64,000 bases of DNA from Podarcis liolepis (Eukaryota), in assembly GCA_965112155.1 (NCBI GenBank), contig OZ218106.1, one strand, 5' to 3'. Both the position numbers and the translations under genes were made by a program. Positions within the stretch are counted from its first letter, which is position 1. The number at the start of each line of letters is the position of its first letter. The notes beneath the pieces were generated by a model. It was not told the origin of the DNA. It was given only the letters and a program-made list of their open reading frames with translations, and made no database searches. Positions 8,715-60,017 of this stretch are shown here, piece by piece.

Positions 8715-9482
8715 CAGAGCTACCATTGCTACACTGGGAGATCTAAAAGGTGTATCTGCTGTACAGGGTGCAAAATGGTAACCCTGTTTTCAATCTAAGC
8801 ATGGCCGAACCTGCTTCTGAGATATGTTTGCATGTGCTGTCAATGGCAATCCCTGCAATAAATCTATAAAGCTGCACCAGACTCTCATTTCAGAAAAATC
8901 CTAGACTGGGTCTTATGGTTACTTTTTCATTTCTATGTATCTGGGTTGTTTTCTACTATACTTTAACTAATCCAGCTTTCTTCCCCTAAATGTTCCTTGT
9001 CTCTTTTGATTCTATCATGGCTTAATTGAGTTGCCTCCCTCTTCCCTCTCTGTATTTCCTTACTGTGAGTTGGACTGTCCATTCTAAGCCATTCTAAGCC
9101 TCTAAAATAGCCTACAAAGTTATTTCAGAGCTACTTGCTGAGAGCCACTGCTGTCACTGCTGCCATCAACAGTTGTTGCCCCCAATTGCTGTTTCCCTGT
9201 CTCCTTAGTAATCTCAACCACTTCCGTTGCTCGCTTCCAGATTCTTAATTTTATGCTTATGCACATGTGTGTGTGTGAAATAAGTCAGACGTCAGAAGTA
9301 AGTAGTAGTGTGGATAGGATAAACCCCAGGCTGGAATTCAAATTCATCCCTGAATACCTTGCTCCACCCTCTGAAGAAGGTTAACTGACACAAGAGCAGG
9401 AAGCAGAAGGGCAATCTGTATCAACCCAAATGAGCAGATATCACAAATAGCCCAGTCTGGCATTTCTGAACCTTGAATTCTA

Positions 9483-11603
9483 TTTTTTTTTTTAAAAAAT
9501 GATATTTATTGAAACAAAAAAAAAAAAAATTAAAATTACACAGAAAAAAGACAAAATTACAAAAAGGGGGGGGGGGAAACCAGAAGCATAAGAAGAAAAA
9601 TAAAAAATAAAACCCTCGGTTTCAAATTTTCCAATTTCCGTTACCTTCTTTCCATGACCTCCTCCTCCTCCCATCTCTTGTATCTTGATTAATAATTGTC
9701 ACAGCAAATCCTTTCCATAATTCATAATATTTTATCTTTACATTACCTTACTCTATTATCATCTTGTCTTATAAAAACGACCTTAAAGCTTAAAACTTAA
9801 ATCTTTTTTACCAACTTCTCATAACCATTACCTTTTTGCCAAATTCTTTAAACATTTTTACAAGAGCCAAGTTATTTCATTTCAACATTTTCCCAACATT
9901 CATAAAACATTTCTAGTAAAAATAATATAAAAAATACAGTAAAATAAAAACAATCCAATCTTCTTCCAGCGTCCCCTCCCCCCGGTCCCGGGATTATCAG
10001 TCTTCTTTTTTTTTTCTTTTTTTTTTGTCCCATTAGTCTGGCACATTAACCTGGTGCTCTTATATCCGAGGCCTTCAAATCTCTTCCATGTCCCTTCCGC
10101 AGCTCTTCTTCATATTTTCCTTTCACTCGCGGGAACTCCAGCTTAATAATGTTTTTGACCCTTTTCAGCAAATCAGCCCTTTTCTCACAGTCCAGACTAA
10201 GCTCCATGTGATGTTTAAAAACATATTTCAAATTCCCTCCAAAATTGAAAGTCTCAACAGCTCCAAACCTCTGACGGCCCATTGCCAGACTCGGAAAGTC
10301 CAAACATCCCTGCAAAGGGGGGGGGGGTCAGTCCAACCCCCCATTTCCAGTTCAATCCAAACTTTATCTTTCCAAATCTGGTTTTTTCCAAGTTCGTTTA
10401 TCAGATCCAAAGGCTCATTTTCCTGCTGGGCCAAAAGTCCCTCCATGCCTGGCGTCCCAGATTCAGCAAAATCCTCTTCTTTCTGTTGTTCTATCATGGC
10501 ACGCTCCTGTTTTAGTTCCTGAATGGGCTCCATGTACTTTTCCACTACCTGATCAAAGGTTCTGGCAGCATTAGTCATAAAAACCATCTTCTGACTTAAC
10601 TGATCCAATAGGGCGTTTATTTTACAGAAAGCACCCAACAGTGCTTCTGAAGGCATTGTCCTGCAAGGTCACAATATTCTTTCCCACAGTTGTAATCAGT
10701 AACAGCCGCAAGTTCCCAGGATTTAGTTACAATTTCATAGTTCCCCTCTAGGGGGAAAAACTTCTGATTGTTCTTTTCCTTGAAAACAATAGCAACAGAG
10801 TTTCTTCTTTAAGATATTTTGTCCATATTTGTTCTTTTAAGAGACGAAAGGAAACAATGGAATCACAATATTTCCCTCCTTTTAACTATCTGTCAAAGCA
10901 TTTATTTCTGGTCAATGAGCTTCAGTCATCAAACCTGACACCCCGCTCCAGGGTCAGGACAGTGGAAAATTACTTTACTTTAACTTTATTTCCACAGGTT
11001 TAAACAACTCAATAAAGGTCCCCCTTCTTCCCCTGCTTCCGAAGGGGGGTTCCGCAATTTTGAATGATGAAAGACGATCCTTTAAAAGTGATTTTTAAGG
11101 CTCTAGTTTACGTTGTCTTTGCTTTGTTATAACTACAAGAAAACGGAAGGGTGACTTCCTGTTTAGCCCTTTCCATTTCAGTACCAAATTAGGGTAAATT
11201 TTAGAGTCCAAGTTCCTTTTATTTCGCCAATTCTTGTTTAATATCCAGGTATTTAGCGTTCCAATACTCACAGTTAGTTATTTTCGATGCCAAATTGTCC
11301 CAGGAAAAAGGCAGCGCTCTCCGGCAACGGCTGTGCGGCTTCGCTCTGCAGAAAAAGCAATTGACTCACAGCACCGCGCCACTTCCCCCTCTTCACTTCA
11401 GAGCCCGTTTCTGGGTTCCTTAGTGGGTTGGGAGGGCGCTAAAGGTGCCCGCCGAGTCCCACGGTCACAGGCTTCATCCGCCTGTGATTTTCAGAAGGGT
11501 CCCCGCTACACCGCAGCGGGAAAGACCTGTTTTGTGCAGAGCTTATCCCTCCAGTTCAGAGGGAGTCCGCCATCACCGGAGGCGCCATCCCGGATGTCCC
11601 CTC
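9483..11603 (-). mobile_element. Full-length non-autonomous L1-type retroelement (~2.1 kb, HAL1-like architecture)
   Basis: 14-bp TSD aaccttgaattcta at 9469-9482 and 11604-11617; poly(A) (T run 9483-9493) with AATAAA (tttatt 9505-9510); minus-strand 5' end GAGGGGACATCCGGGATGGCGCC followed by a CpG-rich ~300-bp leader; no RT/EN coding sequence. Confidence 0.85.
10046..10656 (-). CDS. Element-encoded ORF with an N-terminal heptad/coiled-coil region (ORF1-like), probably one ~200-aa ORF frameshifted at a C11 run
   Basis: Overlapping minus-strand ORFs 10228-10656 (142 aa) and 10046-10315 (89 aa) switch frame next to the G11 run at 10317-10327. Confidence 0.45.
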
Positions 11604-14600
11604 AACCTTGAATTCTAAAGCAGAGACAGCAGGAAACTGAAGAAGAATTCTGCAAGCTTGAATAGCAATGCTAGACAGGATGAAACTATTTATATTGAAA
11701 TCCAATATTCTGTACAAAGCTTCTTAACTGTTTTTGTATATATATATATTTGTATTGATTACTTGGTTGATACCTTATTGTGAAGACAAGCAAATAATAA
11801 GGAAGAATTGAGTTAAAAGACAATGAGATACTTTTACTTTATCTGAGAACACGACTTACAAATGCAAGTCAGTCAGGATGAACATTGCAACTGGAATCTG
11901 GGATAGCAGAGATAAGGCATCTAGCTCCTGCATGCAGGCACAGTTCTTCATCCAGAGCTAGGAATATAGTCTTGAAAGCCTGCATATGATCCCAAGATGC
12001 ATCAGAGTCCACAGCTCTATTTTTTTTATTTAAAAAACCATTTTTGTAACCTTCCTTCATTATTTGTTTATACCCTTTATCCCTAACCCCCTTAGGGGTT
12101 TATATAAAAAAAACCCTCATTAATCATAGATTTCAAGTTCTTCAGGGCAAATCTTTTGAAATTTGTTCTGTGCTGCATGTGTTCCATGAAACTTCCATGG
12201 GTGGATCAGGTGTATTACCAATAGTAAACTGAGTGGGATTATCAGAGAACAGCAGAGGGACTATAGGCTCTCCTCCTGTCCCTTTACTTAGCCCCCAGTG
12301 ACAGAACAAATCAGTGACAGTCACAGCTACCACATGAAAAAGGTGACAGCTCAGTGTTCAATGTAATTGCTAGTCATTTACCTACAGCAGTTCTGGTTTT
12401 CCTAATTGAAAGTGGCTGTCTCCTTCAAATGTGAACAAATTAAATGAAGTGCACTGTGTATAGGCACACACTCCTATGCACACACACACAATGTGGGGAT
12501 ATTGCGGGGGGGGGGAGGTGGAAATCAGCATAGTTATACTAGAGAGGTACAAAAATGCCCTATATAGATAAGACACTTATCTATATAGTGTCTGTCTTTA
12601 ATCATAGCACATTTTGCCCACTTTGAGAGGACACACTGAAATGAAACCATTTTGAAATGTCTGGAAAAGTTGCGCTGTTCCTTTGGAAAAATCAGTCAAT
12701 ATGCCATATGCTGTTCCAATGCACTCCAATAATTACCCATCTTTTCAGAGAACAAAAATGTTACCAAATAAGGGTGCAATGCTTTCCGCTATGCAGTACC
12801 CATACTCAGAGGAATCTCCATAGAGCTCAATGCAGATCGTTTCCTTCATTCTCCATCTTAGTAGAGCCGTGTGGCTGTATTTAGGCACTATGCCAGGCTT
12901 TCATAAAGAAATGGAAAGTTTGTGCTCCTTTCCCATATCTCCATCCAATGCTCAGTCAAATTACATGATCTCTAGGCATCATATACCTTGACTCTACAGA
13001 CAGTGAGGGTTAGATGGGGATATGGAAGTTGTACATATCTTATTTCTAAATTCTTTTCTAAAATGCCCAAGGATACTATGCACCTCTGCATATATATCTA
13101 TGTCCTTCTGTGCTGAGTGCAGAATGGGTGAGAAATAAGGGTGCCTTGGGCACCCTTTAATACACAGTAAAGGATCACATCCTATGAATTACTTCATAAT
13201 TGTCAAAATAGTCAAAAACCCATTGATTCCAGTATTCATAGGCCAAAAAGATGTTCATGGAAAGCTCACAATCATGATAATTAGCCCTTGCATTGTATAT
13301 CCATCAGGCAAAAGAGTAGGAAAATCCCCCTGTGGTGGCAGTTGTGCGGGGAGAAAGGCCACAAAGATTACAGTACCTCAAGCTTCTTTTCCCCCCATTT
13401 TTACTCCCCATTTTTACTTGTAGCCTGTTTCACGATTACTTAATGTTATTGCTGCCACCAATGCCTTTTTCTAAAAAAAACCCCAACCTTCCCTAACTTC
13501 CAAAGGCTTTGCAGTAGGCAGCGTAATCAAATCTTCATTCTTTCCACTTCTTCATGCTTGCATGTTTTGCATTATCAGCTGGATAATTGTTTGGAAAGTT
13601 GTAAGATAGATTTCAATCATGTGTGAATGAATAAAACTCACCTCATATGGAAATTCTTCTTCCGACTACAAGAATTTAATCAGAGTGGTTTGATTACTTT
13701 CCCATGACACATGCTATGTTCTGATAGCAAGCCCATCTCATACATATTTGCACAATCAAATGAATTTTATTGATTAGCAACACTTAATGTCGCCTCAAGC
13801 AGCCATTTGAGAGGTTTCTTCCAGTTTCTCCCCCAAATTGATTGTTTCATATTTGAAAACGTGCAAAGCTTATTACTGATTTTTTCTCTCTTTTTGTGTA
13901 GCCTGAAATATTAAAAGAATCTCGTCCTCTTGGGACTAAGATTGGCATAAAGTGTTTTCAAATCAAATATTTGGCTACAGAAGGAAAGTGAATTTATAAA
14001 GCCATGAGACCTTTTCTTGTACTTAGCACTTCATCTCAGTGAAGGAGACAGCCCTGAGGCATAGTGGATGTCATATAGAAGTTGAAGGAGGTGCTCCAAT
14101 AGCTACTATGTGCATTGGCCTGATTTTTCAATTGTTTCAACATTTATAGATGCCACTGACAAGCCATACCAAGTAAGGACAGCAAGCTTGCACTGTAAGT
14201 AAAGGTAGATTAATCATGTCCAAAGCATCCTTACTGGACCTACCCTATACAGTGTCCTCTGGCTATGAAATAATGATCCCCATCATAGGAAAATCAGGGG
14301 ACACATCATGCATAGCACCAGGCACTGTGGGTGTTTTCAAGACATGCAGCAATATCATTGCTTTGGATTCCTTGTAAAAAGAAATGTGGGTAGTTTGGAC
14401 ATCCAAAACTATTTCACTTGTACCTCAGATGTGAGACAACTGATGGATCATTATTCCTCACAATGTACTCCTTGTATAAAATGTCTTGGCCTTCAGTTTG
14501 GCAAGAACAAAAGATAAATAGGCTGTCCAGGTACAGCTCCCCTGTTTCCCAAGCGTCCTTGTATCTTGCATCTCCTTGTTGCAACCCTAGTTACTGAAAA

Positions 14601-32798: not shown

Positions 32799-33144
32799 GG
32801 TAAAGGTAAAGGGACCCCTGACCATTAGGTCCAGTTGTGACCAACTCTGGGGTTGCGGCGCTCATCTCGCTTTATTGGCCAAGGGAGCCAGCGTACAGCT
32901 TCCGGGTCATGTGGCCAGTATGACTAAGCTGCTTCTGGTGAACCAGAGCAGCGCACGGAAACGCCGTTTACCTTCCCACTGGAGCGGTACCTCTTTATCT
33001 ACTTGCACTTTGATGTGTTTTCGAACTGCTAGGTTGGCAGGAGCAGGGAGCGAGCAACGGGAGCTCACCCTGCCACGGGGATGCGAACCGCAACCCTCTG
33101 ATCGGCAAGTCCTAGGCTCTGTGGTTTAACCCACAGCACCACCC
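32799..33144 (-). mobile_element. Sauria SINE, full length
   Basis: (ACCTTT)n tail reads ggtaaaggtaaaggg on the plus strand; typical body; 10-bp TSD gtcatcccta at 32789-32798 and 33145-33154. Confidence 0.95.
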
Positions 33145-34974
33145 GTCATCCCTAACCCACTGCAATTACCTCCACTCTCCCAGCTGATCCCATCCCAGGC
33201 ATATCTTTCCCTCTCTCCCAAAAATTCAAATGTAAAACAACATCGTGGCAGATTTATAATTATGTAAGGACCATCCCTATAAGAGAATGAAACAAAACAA
33301 AGAAACACAACCAATACCTTTGTCTCCAGATGTTAATGGTGTAGCCTTGACCCTTCCCTTTCCCCTGAAGCAGACCCACAAAAGGGGACATACTCTTGGG
33401 TGTCATCCCCTTTGGGATTGCTGTGACCAGTGGGGCTGCCACCAGCATTAGCCCAGGCACTGATATAGCCCCAACTCCCCTTGGAAGTTGAGTCCAGTTA
33501 GGATCTCAGTCAATCAACAGGGGGTGGCAGCAACAAACTGCCACTGGGAAGCAACTCCAATGTACATTTTTATCTATTTTCTCATTAACTGATTTGTTCT
33601 CTCCATTATAAATAATTTTTGCTATCCTACAAGAGACCTAGTAGAAAAGACTGCTAGTTAGATATGAAAGTGAAGTCCTCCTTAACTATAACCTTAACAT
33701 TCTGTCCTCCTCCTCCTCCTCCATTTCTTTACTTTCCACAATGATATGTCGTTTTCTAATGTGATGTGACTGGACTGATGGCATTCATTCTGATGATGTG
33801 TAATGTAATCCAGTGTGACTGATCAAAAGCAACCCGCCACCTCACAGCACAGGGTAATGTATCACATGTGGAATTTCAGCAGAAGCTGTATTAAGTATGT
33901 CACAGAAAAGGAAACCTGTCTATATCCTAGCTTCTTTAGCTGATCAAACCATCGTAATTCTATTCTCCCTTGCTCTTCCTTTGCTAGAAACAGGGATTGG
34001 CAATATAAACCCTAGTTAACCAATTACCTCCCTTTTTTTCATACACAGACAGGTGTACAATATGGTACAGAATAATGGAGAGAGAATGGTATGGAACTGT
34101 TCCACTACAATGTTCTCCTCTTTATCCTTCATCAATCTAGTCAGTGTTTTCAGCCAGAATATCATATGGTCAGGATTGTACTGCCTTCTGGCTACTCCTC
34201 AAATGGCTCCAATCAGCCATTGCCAAGGGGAATTAACAGGGAAGTGTTTTTAGGAAAGTAACTGTACAAAATACTGGGACACACAGGTTTTCGCTGTATG
34301 GTACTGTCACTGTTGGCATCTTTCTGGTCACTTCACAACCTAGTTAAGCAGGAGTACTTGGATGAATGTATTAGCAATGCTGACTCCATTGTGTTCCAAG
34401 ACTGCCACAACTGCCACAACTCTAGGTTGTTCTGGACACTCTAGAAAAGGGATCACTAATGTGGTGCCCTTAAGACGTTGTTGGATCACCATTCCCAACA
34501 TTTCTGGTCATTTGCCATCCTGATCCTAGTAATAGTTCTACAGATTTGGAGGGCAGCACATTGACTAATTTTGGTCTCACCTGAAGCACCCAATGACATG
34601 ATATCCATGAGAATATGGTATTTTCGTTCAGTAACAGCTCTGCTCATTAAAAAAATAATATTTTTTTAAAATTGTGTGGCCTTTTATAGAACTTTTAATA
34701 GACATTAATCACGGTGTAACTCAAAATAGCCCAACGTGAATTTTTCAAAAAGTCATTTTATTTTATAGAGATTTCAAGAAATTATTGTATCATCAAGAAC
34801 TATGAAAACATGGTCTGTACAATAAGTGACTGTGCATTAACAATCATATATCCATGTACAGAGAAGATTAATATAAAACAGAATAAAAAAGTTAAAAATT
34901 ATAGTTAAAAGTCCAGGTCATTCATTTTAGCCTTACACAAACAATATCAAAGGAATTGACAGGGAGCAGTGGGT

Positions 34975-43073: not shown

Positions 43074-43225
43074 NNNNNNNNNNNNNNNNNNNNNNNNNNN
43101 NNNNNNNNNNNNNNNNNNNNNNNNNNNNNNNNNNNNNNNNNNNNNNNNNNNNNNNNNNNNNNNNNNNNNNNNNNNNNNNNNNNNNNNNNNNNNNNNNNNN
43201 NNNNNNNNNNNNNNNNNNNNNNNNN
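43074..43225. other. Assembly gap (152 N)
   Basis: Run of n. Confidence 1.
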
Positions 43226-55808: not shown

Positions 55809-58298
55809 GCCAAGTCTCTGTTATACATGCTTGCTCCCTCATACCATTTCCCCTAATATTGCTACAGATCACATAGCTGCAAAGGAAGATGCTCCTGTTT
55901 TTCAAGGAATATTGAGTTACTTGGAGTGCACTTACTGAGGAAGAACAAGTAAAATGGGTGTCAGTGTTTCATTTTCACCCGTCACTGGAATTACAGGCTT
56001 AACCAAATACATTGAACTATTTTCTAGTTTGTAATGAGCAAGGGCAAGAGTCTGATAGCTCCCTGCCACAGTTTCATAGCAAACACGGAGGCTAGTGATT
56101 AAAATTCAGTCTCCGTGCAAAGATCTGGCACCGCGGCAGCCTGAAATGGACCTCAAATAATCTTGGGGTAATAATTGTTATTTATATAGAAGCTACAAAT
56201 GTATTGGCCAATTTCACAGCAAAATAAAAAGAGAGGATTTCCTATTAGAGTTGCAACTTCTTTCCTGACAGGTGCATTTTTGCCTTGACTGTGGATCAAG
56301 AATGAAACATCTCCAGTCTTTCTGGCATGAGGTGCCATGATGAAGGAAGCTTCATCGGTTAAGCTTCTGCTTGGAAGGCAACTGCTGAAGGCACAGAAAT
56401 CCTCTTCCATATGTGTGGGAGTGTAGTGGGAAGAGAAGCTACTGTTAATGTTACTATCGATCCAAGTAAGACATTAATGCACTAGATAAGTCTGTGTTCA
56501 GATCCCTATAATTTCTTTAGGAACAAATATTTCACAGCAGTTGGTGTTAGTATCCTTGTTGGCAAAAACAAAACTCTCTTCTTCAGCTGCCATTTTGTGC
56601 ACCCAGGCACAGGAAGGCTAATAGCACAGAATTAGCAGCCATGAGTTTTCTTCCATGCCTGAGTAACTTTCAAAGTATCTTGAAAGCTTCAAAGTGCCCC
56701 CTTTTGTAATACAGCATTGCAGGAGCCTTTGTGGTTTGCCACAATTTTTTTTGAACACTTTATTAGATAATAATGTTGCTTCCAAGGTCAGTAAAAAGCT
56801 GTAAGACATTATTTCTTTTTTTTTTAAAAAAAGCATATATTTTATTCGTTCGCAGAGCAGATGTAGCCCAATGGAAAACAGTTTGGCTTCATGGGAACTG
56901 CCTAGTGATATTAACTCATCCAAATGATGGCTCTGTCAGGTCACATAGCATATTATTCCTACCACCATATCCCCTTTATGATATTCTACATCAGGGTTAT
57001 ATGGGAGATGCTATCAGTTTATCTGGGGTTCATATCATTTCAGCCTAACTTTATATGAAAAATAAGCCACCATATGCCCATCAAATCAAAACATTTTCTG
57101 TAATAAAGGAAGCCTCCTGCACATAAGGTGGTCAGAGTTTCTCCAGAGCATTTACGCTTCTAAGAACCCAGGCCTTTCTGTTTCTTTTCCACAGATGTCA
57201 GTGCAGGTAACTATGCATGGTATTGCTGCCTAAGTAACCAACTTCTATTTTTCTTGACGCTAAGTCAATTAAAATAATGTGGAAACATAGCTAAAGTGTT
57301 CTGCCTTTCCAACCTCCTGCTTTAGAGGCAAAGCACTGTAAAACTTGGAGAATACTCGTGTTGAAATTGTGTTTAGCTTTCAAATTCACAACTCTGGGCA
57401 GTCAATATTGTTGAGAACTTTTTCATATCATGCAGATATAATATGTTGAAAGGGCCAAGGCAGCAGTTGCCAGTGGCCCAGAGCCACCTCCATAACTTTG
57501 CTTCTACATCTACTTCCCCTGGCCACACCACCTCCTCTCTCTCCCAGTTGCATGTAGGATGGCCCTGTCCATGTCCCTATCCACTGGTAGAAGAACTTTA
57601 GGAAGGAGTAATGGGAGTGGAATGGGGCAACAGAAGAACTGGAACAGTCCATCAACCTTTCTAATGTAGAGGGGCATGGGCATAGTGGGGGAGCATGCCA
57701 AAGACCCCCACAATCCTAGAGTAGGCCCTGTGAAGAAACATATTTCCTATTGCAATACTTTATGTGTGCACATGTGAAGGGTTTCTGCACTGATATGCAT
57801 ATTTCTCATAGTGAGTGGCATCATTAATGCAGAACCTATCCAAGTAATCATGCCAGTGCACACAATAAGGGGCTAAGACATAATGGAGCCCCAGGGAAAT
57901 AGCAGTTTTCAGCAGTATGCAGGTGGCCACCTAGTTCGTTGGGAGTTAAGTAGACCCGAGTGCCTGTGTCGACCCAATAAGGCACACATTATGCAAACTG
58001 TGGTGTGAATTATGCATTCCCAATTAGAAGGCTATTGGCACAATCTCCCAAAGGTTATGCATCTTTAAATTCTGTTGATTTCATGGAGACAGTTCAATGT
58101 ATTGATACTCCTCCCATCAGTAGGCAAAATCAGTGGCCCTAAGGTGCTGGTTACATGCTTGTGCTATGAGTCATCTGAATACTCACACAAGACTTGCAGT
58201 TGTCTCTACTGAAAAGTAGTGCACTAGAGATGACACTGAGGAATCTTTATTTTGTTCTGTTTGTCTCTGTCTGTCTTTATTTGAAATAATTAGCAATA

Positions 58299-58513
58299 TA
58301 GTGGCACCTCGGGTTACAGGCGCTTCAGGTTCCATGTTTTTGGGTTGCGCACCACGCCGAACCTGGAAGTACTGGAACGGGCTACTTCCGAGTTTCGGCG
58401 CTCACTCTTTGCGCATGTGCAGAAGCACTGAATTGCGACCCGCGCAGACGCGGCACTGTGGGTTGCAAACGTGCCTCCTGCATGGATCACGTTCGCAACC
58501 CGAGGTTCCGGTG
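58299..58513. mobile_element. Tc1/mariner-pogo (Tigger-like) MITE with TIRs related to 41823-42048 but a different interior
   Basis: TA|tagtggcacctcgggtta ... caacccgaggttccggtg|TA; CpG-rich interior. Confidence 0.8.
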
Positions 58514-60017
58514 TAATCACAAAAAAATCTAATCAAAATATTTGTATCACTTCACAATGTCGCACAATTAAATACATATAATATTAACATCAGAAATGGA
58601 AATATCTTCTCCTGGAAGAGCATTCAAAACCTACTTGGACTTGCCATTGTGGGAGGTAATGCTTTTCTTCACAACATTGCGTAAATGGCATCCAGTTTCC
58701 CCAAAATGTATTTCTATATATTCACTTGCTGTATTTTTTTCTCTTAAATAAGACGTGTGTTTGCTGTTATAGCAAATTAATGAATTCTTTCCAATGAGGG
58801 ATTAATATGACTTCCAGTGTTTGGTCAATAACATCCAATAATGTCTTTCTTTATAGAGGTTTCTTTATAGACGGTTCAGCAGTAACAGTGTTGCATCTAA
58901 AGGGACTTCACACGTTTAGTTGTTATTTTAATCGCTATCTTTGCTGATGGCTGATTTGCGCAGTCAAACCACTGGCTGTTGTAGTACGCATGCACATGTG
59001 AACCAGCCCCTCCAAGTGCTTAACTTGAAAGAAACTGTCTCTGCTTTATTTCTCATGAATATTTCTGGAGGTATTGCAACTTAATTCACCAGCAAGCAAG
59101 CACCCAGCAAGGCCTTAGACTTAAAGACACGCAATTTCCATTTCTACCCCTCTTTTTCTCTACAGCCACTTTTAAATATGCCTTTGATTATGAATGGCAT
59201 GAGCTGTTTAATTGTCTCATTATTCAAATGAAGATTTCCATTAATATGCTCTTCAGGATTAAAAGGCATTAATAAACATATCAAAGAGAGGGGAATAAAG
59301 CTTTGGTCCTATTAATGAAATAATGTTTAGTTTTTAATACATTTTTTGTTCCATTGTTCTCGTTATTAGTTGAAAATGTAAAAGAGTCCATGTAGCAGAA
59401 GCACAGAGGATGAATATTTGACTGTCTTATCTGTATATTCTTCTGGGTAGAATATAAAGGGATATTTATATGAGGCATTAAAATGTCCTGGGAATCAGTT
59501 TTACTCCTTGGTTGAGGGGGGGGGGGTTGATACCTTTTCTTGATTCATAGACATTGGAAAAGTCTGACATCAGATGCATTTTGTGCAAGGAATAGCAGAA
59601 AAATATGGGACAGCTATTGATATGCCAACATATTTGTAAGAAAATAATGTATGTCCGGCATCAAATCTACCCTTCGAGTGCCAGCTTCAATGTTCATTCT
59701 TACAGAAAAGTCATCCATCTACTCTGACATCTGAAGTACAGTGAACAAAGTTCAATACACTTCAGATTCAAACAGGAATGTGGAAAAGTGTGAGGACAAA
59801 TGGAAATAGCAGAATGTAAGATAAATATTGCTACGTGTCACTGAACAAACCAGCAAATGTACAACACAAGATTTATGGCATCAGCCCTGGAACAAAAAGA
59901 ATTTACAGTTCTGGCTAGAAATATATCATTTAAACAATATGAAGAATTCTAGAGAATGGAAAACAAGCACCAGTGAGATAGGATCAGTGACACTGGTGCC
60001 TAGTAAGTATCTTCAAG

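Follow-up and report, generated by a model that had tools for sequence, protein, structure and literature searches.

We analysed a 64,000-nucleotide stretch of the Podarcis liolepis genome (contig OZ218106.1 of assembly GCA_965112155.1; hereafter the window) and found that it carries, on its minus strand, a young, poly(A)-tailed, non-autonomous L1-type element of 2.1 kb. The element has an open reading frame (ORF) of its own, and no homology of its product to ORF1p was detected in Pfam, HMMER and PDB searches. Most relatives of this protein keep heptads near the N-terminus that are predicted to form a coiled coil; the middle varies freely, and a near-invariant 12-residue tip directly precedes the stop codon. 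We conclude with good confidence that the family protein is under selection. We also propose, tentatively and as a reading that could well prove wrong, that the tip may arrest the ribosome, in which case the coiled coil, while still nascent, would tie the element's own RNA to the L1 machinery.

An intact gene of 142 residues in the window copy was not supported, as the gene is broken by a frameshift in an 11-base C-run (10327-10317) that is five letters longer in the window copy than in the relatives. Two contigs from sequencing run X1 that cross the C-run are 5 and 11 letters shorter than the window. The 142-residue ORF is a frameshift product, whether the cause was a mutation or an assembly error, and the conserved C-terminal tip, which lies past the frameshift, had been overlooked in the original prediction; as assembled without the tip, the window copy would be a poor source element. 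Reading through the C-run with an X gave about 200 residues, and the family ORF (10656-10046, about 201 codons) has the same start and stop as P0002, a 201-residue hypothetical protein of Podarcis lilfordi. The read-through query matched P0002 and P0003 (2 of 108 candidates), and a C-terminal query added P0004, of 196 residues (3 of 164 candidates). A HMMER search over 1.84 billion representatives returned five matches, namely P0003, P0005, P0006, P0007 and P0008, and the identity to P0002 was 45% for P0006, 31% for P0007 and 29% for P0008. P0005 is partial and shares the non-coding leader of the element, and the P0008 cluster holds four near-identical members. Overall, the relatives showed 29-81% identity and a length of 196-215 residues where full length; P0002, P0004 and P0006-P0011, with identities of 29-73%, all retain the start, the stop and a length in this range. 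The insertions and deletions between P0002 and P0004 were all in frame, and one of them comprised seven residues within the heptads. No relative of the family protein was found in metagenome and viral collections, and no host gene was found among the 80 other long frames of the window.

The conservation of the protein was concentrated at its C-terminal end. All eight full-length relatives end in R-x-P-G, and the last 12 residues were identical at 8-12 of 12 positions in all 15 pairs of six lineages, compared with 20-42% identity elsewhere in distant pairs; the lineages are related, so the pairwise P values are not independent. Of the 145 gap-free columns 18 were invariant, and eight of these fell within the final 12 (P=3.4e-4 when any window is allowed). 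The relatives had not been picked for their tail, because a profile without its last 20 columns still scored P0006-P0008 at E values of 6e-6 to 3e-5. The replacements within the tip were L/I, K/R and I/L, together with one free position, and the RNA at the tip was unfolded (z of +1.7, -0.1 and +0.4). RNA structure at the tip was rejected on this ground, and the conservative changes together with the absence of folding point to the peptide. The tip was also compared with the 2A/StopGo motif, D(V/I)ExNPG-P, and differed from it in having no N before PG and in being followed by a stop codon, not by proline.

The heptad periodicity that had been claimed for the protein was confirmed, with none of 1000 shuffles as good as the window sequence over residues 5-62. 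The N-terminal heptads were significant in six of the seven sequences, several windows having been tried. The protein middle was acidic, with radical changes and without a basic patch; therefore, there is no evident way for the released protein to bind its own RNA.

The insertion anatomy of the element is that of a target-primed insertion. We found the predicted exact 14-bp direct repeat (9469-9482 and 11604-11617), which occurs nowhere else in the window and of which about 0.001 would be expected by chance. The target-site duplication, however, is probably longer, at 17 bp with one change at 9468, and the element probably spans 9483-11600, because the empty allele joins 9465 to 11601 and the repeat reaches 17 bp if one mismatch is allowed. 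The AATAAA signal and the poly(A) tail were found as described, both on the minus strand, and the reported lack of endonuclease and reverse transcriptase also held, as none of the 63 frames of at least 20 residues reached the Pfam cut-off. As for the claimed L1-type insertion site, the nick-site consensus of the L1 endonuclease is TTTT/AA, and the single site available here is L1-like but ambiguous, since it reads TTCT/AA only with one base assigned to the tail. The features of the element are listed in the table.

Features of the element and its flanking duplications in the window
Feature	Positions	Strand	Remarks
Target-site duplication at element 3' end	9466..9482		Probable 17 bp, one mismatch at 9468; exact core 9469-9482; from the repeat and the empty-site joint in X2 and X9
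Target-site duplication at element 5' end	11601..11617		From the repeat and the empty-site joint
Poly(A) tail, 11 nt	9483..9493	-	
AATAAA polyadenylation signal	9505..9510	-	11 nt ahead of the tail
3' trailer, 552 nt, 30% GC	9494..10045	-	
Family ORF, about 201 codons	10046..10656	-	Frameshifted in the window copy, giving a 142-residue product (10656-10228) that lacks the conserved tip
Near-invariant C-terminal 12 residues, RD[LI][RK]ASD[IL]RxPG	10046..10084	-	Stop codon next
11-base C-run	10317..10327	-	Frameshift site of the window copy
Heptads near the N-terminus (residues 5-62), predicted to form a coiled coil	10471..10644	-	Heptad statistics; helix in low-confidence models
5' leader	10657..11600	-	8 upstream ATGs; first ~300 nt CpG-rich, more folded than shuffles
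5' terminus, two TCCGG..ATGGCG motifs	11568..11600	-	Like the Anolis clade-1 L1 start, spacing different

The two ends of the element resembled those of L1. The original prediction of an intact 5' end with GATGGCG-type motifs was supported by the presence of two TCCGG..ATGGCG motifs, against 0.01 expected; the first half of this motif alone (GACTTCCGG, one mismatch allowed) was not above chance, being seen 6 times against 3.7 expected. The leader had been described as CpG-rich and unmutated. The first 320 nt are indeed CpG-rich (observed/expected ratio of 0.75, compared with 0.20 for the window), but two CpGs have decayed, at 11528 and 11533, where the window reads TG and about 91-100% of the run depth reads CG. 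The length and GC content of the leader (947 nt, 45% GC), the tracts of the trailer and the 5' motif fit the Anolis clade-1 L1 as described in PMC5381506. The first 304 nt (11297-11603, minus strand) folded far better than shuffles, with a z of -4.8, and the first 35 nt were predicted to pair with approximately nt 270-302; such folding was not unique to the leader, as the plus strand gave a z of -3.9 and an unrelated CpG-rich stretch gave -4.4. An Rfam search returned one match, at chance level. Broken frames in the trailer at 9700-9920 (minus strand) may represent the decayed C-terminal end of a squamate L1 ORF2, a tentative lead that received no support from Pfam or the homology searches. 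We consider it very probable that the element uses an internal RNA polymerase II (Pol II) promoter in its leader and target-primed reverse transcription by L1-clade ORF2p on its poly(A) tail. The dependence on an L1-clade ORF2p, as opposed to that of another poly(A)-dependent clade, is one that we infer because the ends of the element resemble L1 ends.

Public sequencing runs were used to follow the family beyond the window. Sampled words of the element were present in 20 of the 24 runs listed, under nine organism labels; no RNA run was among the 24, which has no bearing on expression. Four runs (X1, X2, X4 and X9) were compared in depth with the window. All 19 body bins (9624-11599) were deep in all four runs, with lowest summed body-bin depths of 11,689, 35,077, 2,692 and 16,898, where depth is not equal to copy number, whereas the flank bins did not exceed 112. 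Because the body depth far exceeded the flank depth in all four runs, a single-copy origin is excluded, and the element family is multi-copy along its whole length; multi-copy contigs also cross the boundary between leader and ORF. At the insertion site itself, exactly 2135 bases, the length of the element and one duplication, are missing from contigs of X2 and X9, so that two related genomes among the four runs carry the empty site. One X1 contig links the flank to 37-40 bases of the element 5' end, and X1 is thus the one run of the four with a filled 5' junction; X4 was uninformative on this site. The flanks differed from the window at 15 of 940 bases in X2, 13 of 696 in X9 and 10 of about 990 in X1, by our count. 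Since the flanks of the empty and filled sites differ so little from the window, the insertion is young on the scale of flank divergence between related genomes. The element contigs ranged from more than 99% to less than 90% alike, and the family therefore has both old and young branches. The empty site, the filled 5' junction and the high body depth support the original prediction of an L1-type element that is young, full-length and non-autonomous and that carries a gene of its own. The family is also a source of presence/absence markers among close lizard relatives.

Some further variation was observed along the body of the element. The depth peaked in all four runs at 9624-9727 (part of the trailer), 10040-10143 (the conserved tip) and 11288-11495 (part of the leader), and more distant families, or the partner L1, may have these stretches in common with the element as modules. 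Variants with a local duplication of 60-64 bases were present in the trailer at 9714-9777 in runs X4 and X9. Near 10117, 6-16 contigs per run had a different segment, also in frame, immediately before the final helix; when read by hand, this segment was in the register of the six extra residues of P0004, which marks a second subfamily.

We propose a nascent-chain tether for the action of the protein because a parasite protein would be kept mainly if it aided its own RNA, and because this protein has no evident RNA-binding part. In the proposed mechanism, the element would be transcribed by Pol II from the internal leader promoter, and during translation the tip would act as a termination-arrest peptide that holds the ribosome at the stop codon. 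The middle of the protein would then serve as a spacer between the ribosome-held tip and the emerged coiled coil, which could bind L1 ORF1p or some other component of the L1 particle and thereby bring the RNA tail to ORF2p. Finally, L1 ORF2p would reverse-transcribe the element RNA from its poly(A) tail, and the terminal RxPG could also clear the released chain. We liken this putative tether to XBP1u, which drags its own mRNA, and it would fill the role that the signal recognition particle proteins SRP9/14 have for Alu. According to the published account (PMC10501990), arrest peptides are typically 10-15 residues long, the stop codon is the site of action for some of them, and it is through such a peptide that XBP1u localises its mRNA; the conserved stretch of 12 residues at the stop codon falls within this length range.

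Several observations weigh against this proposal. The account just cited also holds that arrest peptides are not predictable from sequence (PMC10501990), and one Alu study describes translated mRNAs as poor competitors for ORF2p (PMC12199147). Eight upstream ATGs precede the family ORF, P0006 showed no significant heptad pattern (p=0.21), and the most distant members, P0006-P0011, might sit outside such elements. The tip also fits published C-degron motifs. Additionally, the close members had mean BLOSUM scores of -0.32 to -0.44, which are indistinguishable from neutral codon change (about -0.5, with a standard deviation of 0.16), although this neutrality test is weak, as the empirical WAG+G model with rate variation gives -0.31. 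In the BLOSUM, invariant-column and run tests on close members, selection could not be separated from neutrality; of four near-fixed ORF differences in the runs, two are silent and two are not, which is too few for use. The broader reading, in which the family would represent a class of L1 parasite that is neither a short interspersed nuclear element (SINE) nor HAL1, with its own non-ORF1p protein and an arrest tip that hooks the RNA onto L1 particles, is one that we hold as a possibility with the balance tipped against it.

The main alternative reading of the tip concerns the released protein, in which the last residues would form a C-terminal degron or ligase-binding motif. The coiled coil would bind a host restriction factor or L1 ORF1p, and RxPG would recruit a CUL2 ligase via APPBP2 or a KLHDC receptor, or would keep the protein short-lived. 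The R-x-P-G terminus of all eight full-length relatives agrees with both the terminal R-x-x-G of APPBP2, which works at the extreme end too (PMC10614623), and the PG listed for KLHDC receptors, glycine being the rarest natural C-terminal residue (PMC9098119). However, 12-15 residues are conserved, whereas APPBP2 binding depends chiefly on the R and the G, and the motif match was noticed post hoc among many degron classes. A diffusible helper would presumably also benefit freeloading copies, so that selection on it would be weaker. We consider a degron unlikely as the sole explanation of the tip, and the arrest and C-degron readings are not mutually exclusive.

The element could also be a true HAL1, whose protein would be an L1 ORF1p eroded beyond detection that kept its coiled coil, for co-assembly with L1 ORF1p, and a C-terminal remnant. 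The ORF occupies the position of ORF1, at an ORF1-like distance from the 5' end set by an L1-type leader, the N-terminal heptads are compatible with a coiled-coil domain, and non-autonomous long interspersed nuclear elements (LINEs) with ORF1 are known (PMC5786205). The searches nevertheless argue against this identity. Pfam, its ORF1p models included, and NCBIfam returned nothing at cut-off for any of the nine aligned members; PDB gave no match below an E value of 0.14; ORF1p was not among the five matches from the 1.84 billion representatives; and none of 1673 longer candidates scored. Neither the RNA recognition motif (RRM) nor the C-terminal domain (CTD) of ORF1p was detected in the Pfam, HMMER and PDB searches, which were run with no lizard ORF1p as a positive control. 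The family ORF also contains 31% A, compared with about 43% in amniote L1 ORF1 (PMC5381506), and is approximately 150 codons shorter than L1 ORF1. In the ESM Atlas, we found no usable feature match for P0002, and the first matches of its C-terminal part, at 0.79, were within the shuffled range; two AlphaFold2 models were all-helical, with pLDDT values of 38 and 40, which is weak evidence. A likeness of the C-terminal third to the end of squamate ORF1p would favour this reading but is a lead only, unsupported by the homology searches. The HAL1 identity raised in the original prediction thus failed to gain support from the searches; its suspicion that the protein belongs to an undescribed family and has no RRM of the ORF1p kind was supported. 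We regard a true HAL1 as rather unlikely; a deep descent of the family protein from ORF1p is possible.

A third reading places the constraint on the DNA or RNA at the ORF end, as a binding or processing signal, with the open frame being a by-product or merely keeping the RNA translated and stable. The depth peak over the tip indicates a stretch that is alike across more copies at the DNA level, the close members change in a neutral-looking manner, and the full-length proteins were found because they were open. The absence of a fold at the site and the conservative replacements in the tip speak against it, as do the start, stop and length that survive at 29-31% identity and the heptads of six of the seven sequences, and we judge this reading improbable. 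It is very unlikely that the protein derives from a host or domesticated gene (P0006-P0011 included) that was captured as cargo by the element. The distant members may lie outside such elements, and the four near-identical P0008-type proteins are as compatible with a host gene as with a young family. On the other side, no named host gene and no Pfam or NCBIfam family matched, P0005 shares the non-coding leader, and short variants with P0002-type and P0004-type residues were present in multi-contig loose ends (read by hand). Finally, the original prediction had itself named as alternatives a single L1 copy with an internal deletion, a processed pseudogene derived from host mRNA, and the lack of a conserved ORF. 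A poly(A) tail and a target duplication alone would fit either of the first two. These alternatives are largely refuted, since the body is multi-copy in all four runs and across the leader-ORF boundary, and full-length ORF relatives exist in other genomes.

Elsewhere in the window, the stretch at 58250-58600 is CpG-rich, with the highest CpG count of the window, folds with a z of -4.4 on the minus strand and is probably a young short repeat. A second CpG-rich stretch, with modest folding, lies at 32800-33250, and a 152-base run of N at 43074-43225 is an assembly gap.

To place the element among known systems, we compared it with L1, with other non-autonomous LINEs, and with peptides and RNAs to which its proposed action is related. 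Compared by motif and composition with the Anolis clade-1 L1 (PMC5381506), the element is 2.1 kb long versus about 6.4 kb, has no ORF2, and differs in motif spacing from the consensus; it has one CpG island with 31 CpGs, whereas the Anolis clade-1 L1 is described with two islands and about 56 CpGs (PMC5381506). Like HAL1, which is defined by ORF1p (PMC5753468), and like other ORF1-bearing non-autonomous LINEs such as HeT-A and Ag-Sponge, the element is non-autonomous, has L1-type ends and a single ORF whose product is predicted to start with a coiled-coil region, encodes neither endonuclease nor reverse transcriptase, and is likely trans-mobilised. Unlike HAL1, it has no detected RRM or CTD; its protein is acidic and of about 200 residues, its ORF is not A-rich, and the conserved part is the 12-residue tip at the stop codon. 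In the classification of Kojima (PMC5786205), a non-autonomous LINE either bears ORF1 or has no ORF, the latter types coming from RTE, Ingi, Vingi and R2. The present element is of L1 type, and its protein is probably selected but showed no ORF1p homology in the searches run here; it therefore belongs to neither group, although it works like the first. In our literature search, the family and the motif were undescribed; Repbase and Dfam were outside this search, and the DNA family may already bear a library name.

The last four residues, R-x-P-G, fit the motifs of both the CRL2-APPBP2 and the KLHDC C-degrons (PMC10614623, PMC9098119), but conservation in the element reaches 8-11 residues upstream of these four. 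In its proposed action, the protein would be analogous to XBP1u, hCMV gp48 uORF2 and TnaC, in which an N-terminal targeting part is followed by a short C-terminal stretch of specific sequence that acts on its own mRNA (PMC10501990); it has no sequence relationship to them, and arrest by its tip is putative. Sequence-specific eukaryotic arrest peptides are few, and our literature search found no arrest peptide reported in a non-autonomous retroposon. If the tether is true, no other retroposon would be known to have acquired cis-preference in this manner, and the tip would be a new vertebrate arrest peptide, preserved among families that share only about 30% identity. The 12-residue tip is a small, direct handle on the question, and either an arrest peptide or a degron would be a new mode of action for a transposon protein. 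It is mainly from Alu that we understand how non-autonomous RNAs win the L1 enzyme in competition with the RNA of L1 itself. The element resembles the Alu model in that an enzyme-less poly(A) RNA needs closeness to ORF2p (PMC12199147); unlike Alu, which is a non-coding Pol III RNA that uses SRP9/14, it is coding and likely transcribed by Pol II.

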